DNA of 64,000 nt from Thermoproteota archaeon (GCA_027492035.1 JAOZFT010000004.1:576001-640000); one strand, 5' to 3'. Positions 10,139-31,798 are shown, numbered from the stretch's first letter. The notes: generated by a model not told the origin, from the sequence alone. Translations and numbers: made by a program.

Positions 10139-10573
10139 GTGAAAAAATTGGTTAAGAAACTTTTAAAAAATAAGAAAGGGATATCACCAGTAATAGCGAC
10201 AGTCATAATCGTGGCAGTAGCAATAGCTATAGCCATAGCAGTGGCGTTATGGGCAACAGGACTAGTAGGAACTTTCACAAGGTACGAAAAACTAGAAGTA
10301 TCTGCAGCATGGGCGAACAGTACTGGAGTTTATCTGATTGCGAATAACACAGGCTCCTCCACGGTAACTGTTAGTAGTGTCTTTGTAAATGGGGAACCTG
10401 CTAGTGCGTTTGGTGCTACTGTTTCTAGTCCTAGTTTACCATGCACTATTAGCCCTGGCAATGGACAATTATTTAAGATAACTTCCAGCAACTTTAAGTC
10501 AGGCGTAACATACGAAATTACACTTCACACTGCTTCTGGTAAAGATTATCCTAAATCGGTAACTGTGCCTTGA
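10139..10573 (+). CDS. Archaeal type IV pilin (probable major pilin)
   Basis: Class III signal KKG/ISPVIATVIIVAVAIAIAIAVALW. Confidence 0.9.
   Translation: MKKLVKKLLKNKKGISPVIATVIIVAVAIAIAIAVALWATGLVGTFTRYEKLEVSAAWANSTGVYLIANNTGSSTVTVSSVFVNGEPASAFGATVSSPSLPCTISPGNGQLFKITSSNFKSGVTYEITLHTASGKDYPKSVTVP
10221..10260 (+). repeat. 40-bp perfect repeat, copy 1 (inverted copy at 31680-31719)
   Basis: CAATAGCTATAGCCATAGCAGTGGCGTTATGGGCAACAGG matches the reverse complement of 31680-31719 at all 40 positions. Confidence 0.95.
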
Positions 10574-10587
10574 AACTTTGCACATTA

Positions 10588-10605
10588 CCCCCCCTTTTTC
10601 TTTTT
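10588..10605 (+). terminator. Probable oligo-U terminator after the pilin
   Basis: C7 followed by TTTTTCTTTTT shortly after the stop codon. Confidence 0.5.
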
Positions 10606-11098
10606 AAGAAAGCTGAATTTTTGCTATAGAAATCCTAAACAGTTATTCTCTTCCTATATTTTATTTAAACTTACGCTTAAGGTTCCTATTTTGCAGATTC
10701 CCTAAAATTTTTCTTTTAGAATTTGGGGGCTAAATAGTAACTTTTATGGAATAAAATTTTGCAAAACAAAAGATGTAACGATATACGATATCACAGCAAT
10801 TGCTGGAACCAAAAACTAGGCTAGTGTTCAGGAATTTATTCAACTAATAACGGAGCTGGTATGTAAAACCGAAATTCTGTTGAAATGAAAGAGAAAAATA
10901 TAGAAATAAGGAAAAAAGAAGGCTAAAAAATGTAACAAAGAAGAAAAGACCATAAAAAGGGATCATAATTTTTCTTGAAGGCATAGGAAAAATTAAAAAG
11001 TAAAGACTTATCTTCCTATAAGAGACTCCTCTTCTCATTTAATTTATGTCTTATATGCCTGTTAAGAACTTTGTTAATAAGTTGTTTAAAGAAATTGT

Positions 11099-11923
11099 TT
11101 GAAGAATGTTTTGGGGGTTTGGGAAATGGATGTTGTTGTTTGTGTGAAATCTGTCCCTTTAAGTGAACAAGAAATCGTTATTAATGAGGAAGAAACCGGT
11201 GTTGTTAAGGAGAATTTTAAGTATGAAATGAATGAATGGGACTCCTATGCTTTAGAGGAAGCTGTTCAGTTGAAAGAGAAACTTGGCGGAAAAGTTACAG
11301 TAGTGACTGCTGGAGCTCCTAACTGGAACTTAGACTTTGTTTTGCGGGAGTGCTATGCCAAAGGTGCAGATGAAGCAGTTAAAGTTGTTGATGAAGCTTT
11401 TGAGCAACTTGACCCCCTCACCACTGCCAAAGTTTTGGCTGAAGTAATTAAGAAATTAAATTATGACTTGGTTTTGACAGGGGTTCAGGCTTCTGATGAC
11501 AACTACACTCAAACAGGGGTTACTTTAGCCAAATTGCTTGGTTTACCTCATGTTTCAGTTGTAACCAAGGTTGGGGTTTCGCAGGATCAAAAATTTTTAA
11601 CTGTGAATCAGGAATTGGAAGGGGGATATGAACAAATTATCCAAGTTTCTTTACCTGCTTTGTTAACTATACAGACAGGAATAAATCAACCAAGGTATGC
11701 TTCTTTAATGAAGATAAGGGCAGCTATGAAGAAGGAAATTAAAACCTTAAAACTTGAAGATTTAGGGTTTACCAGAGACAAATTACTTGGAATGGTTCCT
11801 GTTAAAGTTGAAAGAGTTTTTACACCTAAAGTTGAGAAAGCTGTAAAATTCTTGAAAGGTTCTCCTGAAGAAATTGCTCAACAAATAGTTGAAATACTGA
11901 AGGATAAAGGATTGATTGGGTGA
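11099..11923 (+). CDS. etfB: Electron transfer flavoprotein beta subunit (likely start 11126)
   Basis: VVCVKSVP, MNEWDSYALEEA, GVQASD, INQPRYASL. Confidence 0.95.
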   Translation: MKNVLGVWEMDVVVCVKSVPLSEQEIVINEEETGVVKENFKYEMNEWDSYALEEAVQLKEKLGGKVTVVTAGAPNWNLDFVLRECYAKGADEAVKVVDEAFEQLDPLTTAKVLAEVIKKLNYDLVLTGVQASDDNYTQTGVTLAKLLGLPHVSVVTKVGVSQDQKFLTVNQELEGGYEQIIQVSLPALLTIQTGINQPRYASLMKIRAAMKKEIKTLKLEDLGFTRDKLLGMVPVKVERVFTPKVEKAVKFLKGSPEEIAQQIVEILKDKGLIG

Positions 11924-29454: not shown

Positions 29455-29760
29455 CTACAACAGCCTCGTTAAGGGTGTAATGATTGCGAGTATCTTAAAA
29501 CTTGTTCCAACCATCCATTGCAAACGCTCTAAACATTTATCTACATAATGTACCAGCTCTTCTCTTAATTTGTTTATTTCTTCTTTTGTTTCTTTTCTCA
29601 GTTTGTTTGCATCCTCTTTGGTGGCGATACTCTCTAAAGCTGTTTTGGTCATAACTGATTGCATTTCAGGGTCCTTCGCTATTTCAACAGCTAAACTTTT
29701 TAAAGTCCATTTATCCCTCTTAATTCCTTCAACTATCTCTTCAGCAGATAAATTAGACAA
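29455..29760 (-). CDS. Small coiled-coil protein with C-terminal hydrophobic end (paREP/CCDC90-like; possibly degenerate)
   Basis: LAVEIAKDPE...IATKED...LREEL heptads, then WMVG...ILAII. Confidence 0.5.
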   Translation of the reverse strand: MSNLSAEEIVEGIKRDKWTLKSLAVEIAKDPEMQSVMTKTALESIATKEDANKLRKETKEEINKLREELVHYVDKCLERLQWMVGTSFKILAIITPLTRLL

Positions 29761-30133
29761 ATTAAGCCGCCGAAACTTTTAAAGAAAACATTTTCACTTA
29801 AACACCCAACTCATTTTTTAAAAATTTTTACTTATTTCTATGTTAAGAATCAAGGGTTTAACTGGTGTCATCTGCTGAATCAGAATCGAAAATGATACTT
29901 TCTTTTATCTTGCTAAGCCTATTCGTTTACTGTCCTTGTTTCTTTCTCACATATCTATCTCCAGCTCTTATGAAAATAAAAAACAATCAATGGCCCTGTG
30001 CAGTGTTTAGTGGAAATTAAATAAATGCTTTTTGTACAAGTTATTCCTTAAAACTTTTCTTCTCCTCTGAAGTTAAGAAAATGTGTTTTTCCTTGTTTAT
30101 TTTGTCTTTTAAGTGCTCTAAAAGAGTTTGCTT

Positions 30134-31003
30134 CTATGAAATTATATTTAGGGCTTTGTACATGTTTCTATAGCTTTTCTTCAATTCTTCATTGCTCATT
30201 TTGTTTTTCACTTTATTTATTTCCTTTATTGCTTTTCCTTGGTTAAAAACCAGTTTTTTCACCAGATTTATTTTGTTTTCTATTTCCTCAATGTACTCTG
30301 TTAAATTTTTGTTTTCTGTTTGTAAAGTTAGGATTAGTGAAGGATTTTGGCTCAGTATTGCTTTCATCCAGAGGAGTAGAACTTTGAAGGTAGGCCCTGA
30401 AACCCCCTCTATTTCTTTTAAGTTTCTGTTTTCCAACATAAATGCCAAAACAAGACTTAAAAAATAGTTTAATGAAATGGTTAAACCCATTAATTCTTCA
30501 TGTTTTCTTAAATCCAAAGTAATGAATTTACATTCATTAAATATCTCTTTTGCTTTGTCAAGTTCCTTTTCCTTGTCTTTCACAGGTACTAAAACAATTT
30601 TTTCCTGGTTTATTTCCTTTACTCCTGGCCCGAAAAGCGGATGAAGAGAAATAACTTGCACGTTCCTTTTTCCAATTTTTTCCAGTGCTTGGAAAACTTT
30701 TTCCTTCAACGAAGTTATCTCTACTATTGTCTTTATTTTTCCAGTCTTTAAGGTGGTTTCGTTAAAAATTTTGTTCAGTATTTTTGGGGTTTCTGGTATT
30801 GGTAGAGAAAGGAAAACAATATCAGCGTTTTCTACTGCTTTCTTAAATGATTCTTCAAACTCTACTCCAAGCATTGAAGCTACTTTCTTTCCTTTCTCTT
30901 TATTTATATCATTAATCAAAACTTGGAACTTTTTATTTTTGAAATATTGGGTAAAAACTTGACCCATTGACCCCGCTCCACCTATAACTGCGATCTTAAC
31001 CAT
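30134..31003 (-). CDS. tyrA: Prephenate dehydrogenase
   Basis: IGGAGSMG Rossmann motif, EITSLK, HPLFGP. Confidence 0.9.
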   Translation of the reverse strand: MVKIAVIGGAGSMGQVFTQYFKNKKFQVLINDINKEKGKKVASMLGVEFEESFKKAVENADIVFLSLPIPETPKILNKIFNETTLKTGKIKTIVEITSLKEKVFQALEKIGKRNVQVISLHPLFGPGVKEINQEKIVLVPVKDKEKELDKAKEIFNECKFITLDLRKHEELMGLTISLNYFLSLVLAFMLENRNLKEIEGVSGPTFKVLLLWMKAILSQNPSLILTLQTENKNLTEYIEEIENKINLVKKLVFNQGKAIKEINKVKNKMSNEELKKSYRNMYKALNIIS

Positions 31004-31354
31004 TTTTTACACATCCTTAAACTCTACCTGGCCTCCCCTCAGTTTTTAATGCCCCCTTTCAACAACAGTTCATGAAAAACAGTTTATTTCTGTTGCATTT
31101 AATTATTAACCATTTTATAAAGAAGGAGGTCCTTTTTCAATTTTTTAAGGGTTAGAACGGTTATAACCCTTTCTTCTTCACTAAAAATTAAGTAATAAGT
31201 AAATTTGCTTAAAACCTTGAAAAAAGTGTTGAGTCCTTTGGAGTTGCAGCATTATCTCACATGCAGTTTCACTTACAGTTAAGGGCTTTAAATTGATTTT
31301 TAGGAGCCTGGGAGACTTAAAATCTTTTGAACTAAATGTAGAACCTCTTTACTT

Positions 31355-31798
31355 TTAAGGTATAACTACTGATTTAGGATAGTCTTTCCCTGAAGCAGTG
31401 TGAACAGTTACTTCATATGTTATCCCTGACTGCCAGCTTCCGGATGTAATGCTGGAAGGAGGACCAGATATTGTTATTTGCTGCCCACCACCAACAGCAA
31501 CTGTGAAAGGAAGAGTAGGAGATGACACTTTACTATTATCTGGTATACCATTCACGAAAACATCAGTAATTGTTACATCTGTTGAACCTGTGTTATTAAC
31601 AATAACCTGTACATCAGTGCCGTCATAATATATAGCAGTTATTTCTAACTTTTCATACCTGGTAAATGTCCCAACCAAACCTGTTGCCCATAACGCCACT
31701 GCTATGGCTATAGCTATTGATACAGCGACGATTATAACTGTTGCTACAACAGGATGAATGCCTTCCCTATCTCCTATAAATAAAAGTTTCCTTCTCAT
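31355..31798 (-). CDS. Archaeal type IV pilin, paralogue of 10139-10573
   Basis: REG/IHPVVATVIIVAVSIAIAIAVALWATGLVGTFTRYEKLE and HTASGKDYPKSV. Confidence 0.9.
   Translation of the reverse strand: MRRKLLFIGDREGIHPVVATVIIVAVSIAIAIAVALWATGLVGTFTRYEKLEITAIYYDGTDVQVIVNNTGSTDVTITDVFVNGIPDNSKVSSPTLPFTVAVGGGQQITISGPPSSITSGSWQSGITYEVTVHTASGKDYPKSVVIP
31680..31719 (-). repeat. 40-bp perfect repeat, copy 2 (inverted relative to 10221-10260)
   Basis: Reverse complement is identical to 10221-10260. Confidence 0.95.

Follow-up and report, generated by a model that had tools for sequence, protein, structure and literature searches.

Gene conversion between pilin copies is classical in the pilE/pilS system of Neisseria, where it produces antigenic variation. 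In the Piv system of Moraxella (tfpQ/tfpI) and in the R64 shufflon (Rci), a dedicated recombinase is encoded beside an invertible segment of about 2 kb with short conserved sites. In this study, we analysed two convergent genes for archaeal type IV major pilins, pilA and pilB, in a stretch of 64,000 nucleotides from a Thermoproteota archaeon (GCA_027492035.1, JAOZFT010000004.1:576001-640000). This whole stretch is called the window below, and positions are counted from its first nucleotide. The two genes share a perfect inverted repeat of 40 nucleotides (nt) inside the segment that codes for the N-terminal helix. Our analysis suggests that this identity island probably arose when recent gene conversion between two ancient paralogues of a major pilin affected a short tract of their helix-coding DNA, and that it is one case of a pattern that recurs in the pilin family.

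Among the descriptions covered, the closest protein-level analogue is the set of PilA1-PilA6 pilins of Haloferax volcanii, whose H-domain is described as almost completely conserved (PMC4371748). According to the same source, the major-pilin paralogues of this haloarchaeon are scattered and lie away from the assembly genes, and the H-domain is required for assembly. It also gives the features by which such pilins are recognized: a short charged leader, G/A/S at position -1, and a hydrophobic H-domain of about 25-30 residues. For the Aap pili, two pilin homologues per system are described as typical (PMC13705601). A literature search over the titles and abstract openings of part of the matches found no description of gene conversion between archaeal pilin paralogues, and no paper on concerted evolution of archaellins was found by literature search.

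pilA lies at 10148..10573 on the plus strand and encodes 141 amino acids from a TTG at 10148, or 144 from a GTG at 10139. The TTG is preceded by a Shine-Dalgarno-like GGTGA motif, and both start variants were found in the protein collection. pilB lies at 31355..31798 on the minus strand, encodes 147 amino acids and has 65% amino-acid identity to pilA. Positions 10221-10260 (plus strand, within pilA) are the exact reverse complement of 31680-31719 (minus strand, within pilB), and these 40 nt are the longest exact match between the two genes, bounded directly by mismatches at 10220 and 10261. The island corresponds to mature residues 15-26 (IAIAIAVALWAT) of the hydrophobic N-terminal helix. It sits within a wider imperfect inverted repeat detected by a repeat search (left arm 10161..10305, plus strand; right arm 31635..31779, minus strand; 145 nt, 78% complementary), which covers the conserved segment coding for the signal peptide and the helix. 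Inside the island, 12 consecutive codons are identical, and the alanine codons follow the same order in both copies (GCT, GCC, GCA, GCG, GCA). The 13 codons on its 3' side (GLVGTFTRYEKLE) encode identical residues with synonymous differences in 10 of the 13, and on its 5' side 8 of the 12 conserved codons differ synonymously. An earlier note made from the sequence alone (the sequence-only reading) had described the perfect repeat, the shared order of alanine codons, the diverged codons on both sides and the convergence of the genes, and our direct sequence match and codon-by-codon alignment agree with it on all of these points.

We asked how often such a run would arise by chance, with expectations taken from the codon usage of long open reading frames (ORFs) of the same contig. 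Inside the island the two genes agree at all 11 degenerate codons, where genome codon usage predicts 3.8 agreements; outside it they agree at 31 of the 77 conserved degenerate codons, where codon usage alone predicts 27.8. This difference argues that pilA and pilB are old, with saturated synonymous sites, and that the island is young. The probability that 12 such codons agree under genome codon usage is 7e-6. A run of at least 12 identical codons anywhere in the 43-codon conserved block has P = 4e-5 when codons are drawn independently. Shuffling of codon states gave P = 2e-4 within the 43-codon block and P = 0.0012 over the whole gene. An origin by chance together with shared codon bias would draw on the fact that both genes use the genome's codon usage, in which ATA and GCT are the commonest isoleucine and alanine codons. 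However, the values from 4e-5 to 1.2e-3 come from models that already use either this codon usage or the codon states of the genes themselves.

The commonest codons do account for another feature of the island. The palindromes ATAGCTAT and GCTATAGC are both present in it, as the sequence-only reading had reported, but they are the automatic product of ATA-GCT-ATA-GC for Ile-Ala-Ile-Ala, and ATAGCTAT occurs in the G002 homologue too. We therefore do not count them in favour of a recombinase site.

The DNA of the island is specific to this lineage. A search for further copies, which the sequence-only reading had proposed, found only the window pair in the genome (1,868,193 bases in 42 contigs) with up to three mismatches permitted. 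When the 40-mer was compared across 116 loci (numbered L004-L124, without L001-L003), a match of 40/40 was found only in the window's own copies, L013 and L019, and the best match among the other loci was 32 of 40 positions. Two relatives of the same phylum encode AIAIAIAVA(.W) with other alanine and valine codons. We also scanned metagenomes with an alignment of pilA and pilB and retrieved 22 loci by the peptides IAIAVALW or VGTFTRYE. These loci encode I[AT]IAIAVALW and match the 40-mer at 25-32 of 40 positions; at 38-69% identity, none of them is a same-species contig and none is a chimera. These comparisons make deep conservation of a DNA or RNA element, or of a recombinase site, unlikely.

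To see whether other pilin pairs carry similar islands, the family profile was searched in 401 genomes of the phylum of G061 (a genome described below), in five further genomes and in 43 genomes of the window's own phylum. All genomes with at least two strong matches were taken and fragments shorter than 100 amino acids were dropped, which left 33 within-genome pairs from 30 genomes. Six pairs, pilA/pilB among them, have an amino-acid identity of 0.61-0.70, and five of these six carry an exact run of at least 40 nt, in every case in the helix segment: 40 nt in the window's genome (G000), 42 in G262, 49 in G358, 117 in G155 and 153 in G062. The sixth pair (G110) has a 31-nt run at the C-terminus. 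Among equally diverged pairs from different genomes (identity 0.6-0.7), only 3 of 182 reach 40 nt, and in two of these three G062 is compared with its own copy L102. In this segment, paralogues of one genome are thus more alike than equally diverged homologues from different genomes. Clustering of codon states in a shuffle test was significant in four of the five pairs. P was 0.0012 in the window's genome, as above, and 5e-5 in G358, and the observed run was reached in 0 of 20,000 shuffles in both G062 and G155. In G262 the clustering was not significant (P = 0.21), and the whole N-terminal half of that pair is less diverged. A seventh case, G473, has at least 66 nt in common, up to a contig end. 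The arrangement of the copies varies: G062 and G155 have tandem copies, G000 and G358 have inverted ones, and in G262 and G473 the two copies are on different contigs. Because the islands occur in any orientation and with variable length, they point to homologous gene conversion and not to a site-specific system.

Several contigs of draft genomes in this collection begin or end inside the helix-coding segment of a pilin gene (C37, C8 and C70 of G358 and C81 of G473; loci L152-L154 and L174), and the copies at these contig ends have near-identical helix DNA and different heads. This suggests that the repeated helix segment breaks short-read assemblies, or that strains were mixed, in G358 and G473. 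G473:C81 was considered as a second 5'-truncated cassette and dropped, as it is simply cut by the contig end. The extra copies in G358 are confounded by contig ends and an N gap.

Selection on the nucleotides themselves would offer another explanation for the identity, with the island acting, for example, as an RNA or DNA element common to both genes, as the target of a small RNA, or as a site where translation pauses in a codon-dependent way for membrane insertion. Rare codons do stand at the same places in both genes (GCG, GCC and GTG make up 7%, 15% and 19% of their synonymous families). Against this, relatives encode the same peptide with different codons at this place, the boundaries and lengths of the islands vary among genomes from 40 to 153 nt, and nothing similar exists in the third, divergent pilin-like paralogue of the window (8867..9349, plus strand; 26-32% amino-acid identity to pilA and pilB). 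This paralogue has no identity island with either gene, its longest exact run being 8 nt. We regard nucleotide-level selection as very improbable.

Gene conversion between distant pilin paralogues is seen directly in a pair of relatives, G061 and G333. Each has two inverted pilin paralogues 108 kb apart (G061:C1:968604-969080 and 1077235-1077717; G333:C1:1154417-1154884 and 1261924-1262397; L177-L180). Stretches of 8.7 kb around each pilin can be aligned over their full length between G061 and G333, the pilin genes included, with 93-94% identity, and in this sole testable pair no inversion bounded by the pilins was found. One of the G061 loci is a mosaic. Its 5' flank, signal peptide and helix match the G333 orthologue at 58-60 of 60 positions per window of comparison, while its head agrees with the other paralogue (57-58 of 60) and much less with its own orthologue (35-48 of 60). 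The 3' flank again matches the G333 orthologue. The alignment shows that the G061 head was overwritten by non-reciprocal gene conversion from the distant inverted paralogue, with no inversion.

The surroundings of pilB bear on the orientation of the window. Directly downstream of pilB is a prephenate dehydrogenase gene (30134..31003, minus strand), and directly upstream is a gene for a chorismate mutase-aminotransferase fusion (32039..33478, minus strand), the last gene of a co-oriented aromatic amino-acid operon that runs to about 42470. pilB and its own intergenic flanks occupy 31004-32038, inside this operon. In all three relatives that have both enzyme genes (G001, which belongs to the same family, and two members of the same phylum, G020 and G023), the two are adjacent and co-oriented, with a gap of at most 275 nt and no pilin gene between them; prephenate dehydrogenase was not found with this query in G002 and G026. 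It follows from this adjacency that the ancestral order is preserved in the assembled orientation, with pilB as a lineage-specific insertion. Pilin synteny is not conserved among relatives: in G026 the orthologue is part of a pilus assembly locus, and the contigs of G001 are short. Only the right-hand junction can be polarised, through the aromatic amino-acid operon.

The protein collection of about 15 billion sequences also bears on the two junctions. The pilA cluster contains two distinct sequences from three contigs and the pilB cluster four from five contigs, all of them in the parental combination of signal peptide and head; no other match above 60% identity to pilA or pilB was found in the collection. 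This count covers a handful of strains, and assemblies report the majority state. The sequence-only reading had itself named an assembly join at the shared k-mer as something that would undo it. The same signal-peptide and head combinations on other contigs argue against such an artefact, and since pilB is flanked on both sides by its ancestral neighbours, the junctions are not misjoins. Together with the probabilities given above, this makes chance with shared codon bias, or an artefact of assembly, an extremely improbable source of the island.

The headline of the sequence-only reading was a shufflon-like inversion switch. If such a switch were programmed or frequent, the 40-mers would be recombination sites, and crossing-over between them would flip about 21.4 kb and swap the heads between promoters and signal peptides, with phase or antigenic variation of the pilus as the result. 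The geometry fits, with an exact inverted repeat between signal peptide and head in two convergent pilin genes. Each gene has a putative AT-rich TATTTAAA-like box of its own upstream. G358 has a convergent inverted pair 5 kb apart with its 49-nt island, and invertons in archaea are described as little explored (bioRxiv 10.1101/2023.03.11.532203). However, no tyrosine (PF00589), serine (PF00239) or Piv/IS110-type DEDD (PF01548) recombinase was found in this 93%-complete genome, although the controls were positive, with PF00589 matching in 14 of 14 control genomes, four archaea among them. The recombinase that the sequence-only reading had suggested might accompany the motif was thus not found. 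Its statement that the window encodes none held up: none of the 63 window ORFs of at least 80 amino acids gave a match to a recombinase or transposase family. Several further points count against the switch. Chimeric signal-peptide and head combinations were seen in none of the six distinct pilA or pilB sequences on the eight contigs, the assembled order of chorismate mutase-aminotransferase, pilB and prephenate dehydrogenase is ancestral, and the site sequence is not conserved in relatives. The interval consists of 21 kb of housekeeping genes, unlike the small segments of known invertible systems. Islands of the same or greater length are found between direct copies in tandem, and crossing-over there would cause a deletion instead of an inversion; G061 and G333, the one testable pair of relatives, have no pilin-bounded inversion. 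A switch of this kind is therefore unsupported, though not refuted, and we consider it quite unlikely; nothing in the window indicates a high-frequency programmed process. Rare inversion by homologous recombination across the 40 bp may occur in this genome. With PF00589 at E <= 0.001 there was no match in G000, so that not even a XerA-type protein was seen, and its gene may be unassembled given the 93% completeness.

A truncated pilin copy was observed in G155, a single-contig genome of 1.75 Mb from the family with Thermofilaceae-labelled records (G155:C1:201372-203294, L133). Downstream of a full pilin gene, at a distance of 1.1 kb, lies a 5'-truncated copy without the signal peptide and about 14 helix residues, and the 117-nt exact identity begins at the truncation. 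The head of the truncated copy is the expressed head of a related strain: it is colinear with the full-length pilin P0069, from a Thermofilum-labelled record, with 104 of 131 residues identical and no gaps. The full copy has a different variable loop. The truncated copy may represent a silent cassette of the pilS type or a remnant of allele replacement.

Allele replacement has also to be considered for the window itself. A foreign or paralogous segment would have been acquired, giving a mosaic gene, and the island would be the leftover recombination junction. Heads have been exchanged in this pilin family, as in G061, the identity in the G155 copy starts at the truncation, and pilB itself is a lineage-specific insertion in the aromatic amino-acid operon. 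However, a single graft junction would leave one whole side identical, while pilA and pilB show saturated divergence on both sides, with 8 of 12 conserved codons changed on the signal-peptide side and 10 of 13 on the head side. A mosaic origin is in our view unlikely.

A further possibility is that, in Aap-like pilins of thermophilic archaea, the helix segment stays identical because it serves as a recombination handle for moving heads between expression loci and silent or distant copies, which would vary the cell surface in the manner of pilE/pilS. In the window's genome, this handle would now and then flip the interval of about 21.4 kb and so swap heads between promoters. If this were true, a possible purpose would be escape from viruses that bind pili. 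The 40-nt island, the head replacement in G061, the truncated copy in G155 and the assembly breaks in G358 and G473 are all compatible with it, but these four observations show neither a frequent nor a regulated process. The pilins of the window's genome comprise the two copies and one divergent paralogue, with no promoterless 5'-truncated silent copy, and the only 5'-truncated pilin copy is in G155, an unrelated genome. We find such a role of the helix segment doubtful.

A recent short gene-conversion tract, which the sequence-only reading had offered as its simpler alternative, agrees best with the data. The identical patch lies inside saturated synonymous divergence and is bounded on two sides, its DNA is lineage-specific, similar islands recur independently of orientation, and conversion is seen in the comparison of G061 with G333. 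We propose the following course of events. Both pilins would have retained the same helix because a single kind of filament core has to accommodate them and the same prepilin peptidase has to process them, while their heads diverged. Then 40 to 42 nt of helix-coding DNA would have been copied non-reciprocally from one gene over the other, probably by the RadA-dependent recombination and repair machinery; the genome has three genes of the RadA/Rad51 family. The event would have begun where protein constraint keeps the two DNAs most alike. Conversions that extend into the head would presumably be lost or rare, which would leave the helix homogenised and the heads different. Homogenisation plausibly helps to keep filament cores compatible while heads diverge.

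Several points weigh against this reading. We infer conversion in this genome, with its mechanism, donor and selective filter, from the pattern of the sequences. Forty nucleotides is short for a conversion tract between sequences that are about 65-78% identical around the island. The pairs in the family comparison were selected for two strong matches, and related genomes are not independent of each other. The nearest other family members have at most 60% identity and are too distant for concerted evolution to be followed along the lineage. Finally, the ancestry of the two genes is not settled by a tree of the heads alone (70 proteins, 101 columns). In this tree the pilA head groups with P0005 (96 in the Shimodaira-Hasegawa-like approximate likelihood ratio test, SH-aLRT) and pilB falls outside that group. 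The approximately unbiased (AU) test does not reject a pilA/pilB clade (p = 0.52). In view of this value, we make no claim of a non-sister origin or horizontal transfer of pilA and pilB.

The assignment of pilA and pilB as pilins is based on several features of their sequences. Both proteins have a short charged leader, a glycine at -1, a hydrophobic stretch of about 27 residues and a small beta-rich domain ending in HTASGKDYPKSV. The translation of pilA reads ...KNKKG followed by ISPVIATVIIVAVAIAIAIAVALWATG, and that of pilB reads ...GDREG followed by IHPVVATVIIVAVSIAIAIAVALWATG. The class III signal peptide of pilA thus ends in KKG before ISPVIATV, and its small beta-rich head ends in HTASGKDYPKSVTVP; the signal peptide of pilB ends in REG before IHPVVATV. 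Upstream of the island, the mature proteins differ at three residues. As single sequences, the proteins are poorly recognized by Pfam Pilin_N, with 16.6 bits for pilA (under the cut-off of 25.2) and no match for pilB. A profile built from 20 family members, in turn, matches ten distinct sequences in the Protein Data Bank, from archaeal type IV pili of solved structure; the best are 8fk7 (E 7e-12) and 8q30 (4.7e-10), and 8fjs, 8fj5, 6nav and 6w8x are further matches. There are 964 homologues, named as archaellin/type IV pilin N-terminal domain proteins or flagellin-like proteins, and their source labels include Thermofilum, Thermosphaera, Bathyarchaeia and Nitrososphaerota. The genome encodes both the prepilin peptidase and the assembly ATPase expected of an archaeal type IV pilin system. 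An archaeal prepilin (class III signal) peptidase gene with Peptidase_A24 and Arc_PepC_II domains lies in the window at 7833..8663 on the plus strand, and one of the three T2SSE-type ATPase genes lies about 11 kb upstream of the window. In G026, of the same phylum, a single close orthologue stands between genes for a T2SSE ATPase and a T2SSF platform protein. This evidence fits pilA and pilB as old duplicates of an Aap-like, adhesion-type archaeal type IV major pilin.

The interval between the two pilin genes (10574..31354) comprises 20.8 kb with housekeeping genes on both strands, and neither a recombinase gene nor a mobile-element gene was found in it. It encodes the beta and alpha subunits of electron transfer flavoprotein, acyl-CoA dehydrogenase, enoyl-CoA hydratase, malic enzyme, an ATP-dependent DNA ligase, a UbiA prenyltransferase and cysteinyl-tRNA synthetase, among others. 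Two ORFs, at 9388-9969 (194 amino acids) and 15414-17096 (561 amino acids), had no Pfam match at E 1e-4; the former is flanked by the divergent pilin paralogue and pilA and runs on the strand opposite to theirs. Elsewhere in the window, a gene for an AbiEii-type nucleotidyltransferase toxin (2699-3712, minus strand) overlaps an upstream gene with weak helix-turn-helix matches (3681-4478, minus strand), and the two are likely to form an AbiE-type toxin-antitoxin pair. At 4678-7121, a tandem pair of PhoU plus TrkA-C genes precedes a tandem pair of MgtE-domain genes, and these pairs look like duplicated or split transporter and regulator modules.

For the window, the island is best seen as a trace left when old duplicates recombined in the ordinary way, and it calls for no new machinery; in itself it matters little. 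The family-wide pattern is a small but usable result for research on archaeal surface filaments. In Aap-like pilins, the constant helix is homogenised at the DNA level within a genome while the heads diverge, and heads can be overwritten from distant paralogues. This pattern would explain how filament cores stay compatible in archaea with several pilins, and why metagenome assemblies break inside pilin genes. It also calls for caution, as gene trees of full-length pilins mix different histories.

The likeness to the bacterial systems described at the outset is partial. As in pilE/pilS (see also PMC4877100), non-reciprocal copying occurs between pilin paralogues with conserved segments; among the relatives, the G061 head was overwritten from a distant paralogue, and G155 has a truncated copy that lacks the signal peptide. 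Unlike in that system, the window has just two copies, both full length with starts and signal peptides, and conversion has affected the constant helix instead of the variable head. As in the Piv and Rci systems, the inverted repeats lie within pilin coding sequences, at the border between a constant N-terminal and a variable C-terminal part. The locus differs from both: no recombinase was found, housekeeping genes fill the interval of 21.4 kb, and the site lacks conservation.

Like the Aap pili of Sulfolobales as described (AapA and AapB), the window encodes two pilins, and their family profile matches solved archaeal pili. Unlike the Aap pilins, they are encoded outside any assembly operon, pilA near the prepilin peptidase gene and pilB in the aromatic amino-acid operon, and the system is known here from its genes alone. 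As in published accounts of PilA1-PilA6 of H. volcanii, the major-pilin paralogues lie scattered and apart from the assembly genes, and a near-invariant hydrophobic N-terminal domain is combined with C-terminal parts that differ. The account of H. volcanii is at the protein level, whereas here two Aap-like paralogues share identity at the DNA level against a background of saturated synonymous sites.

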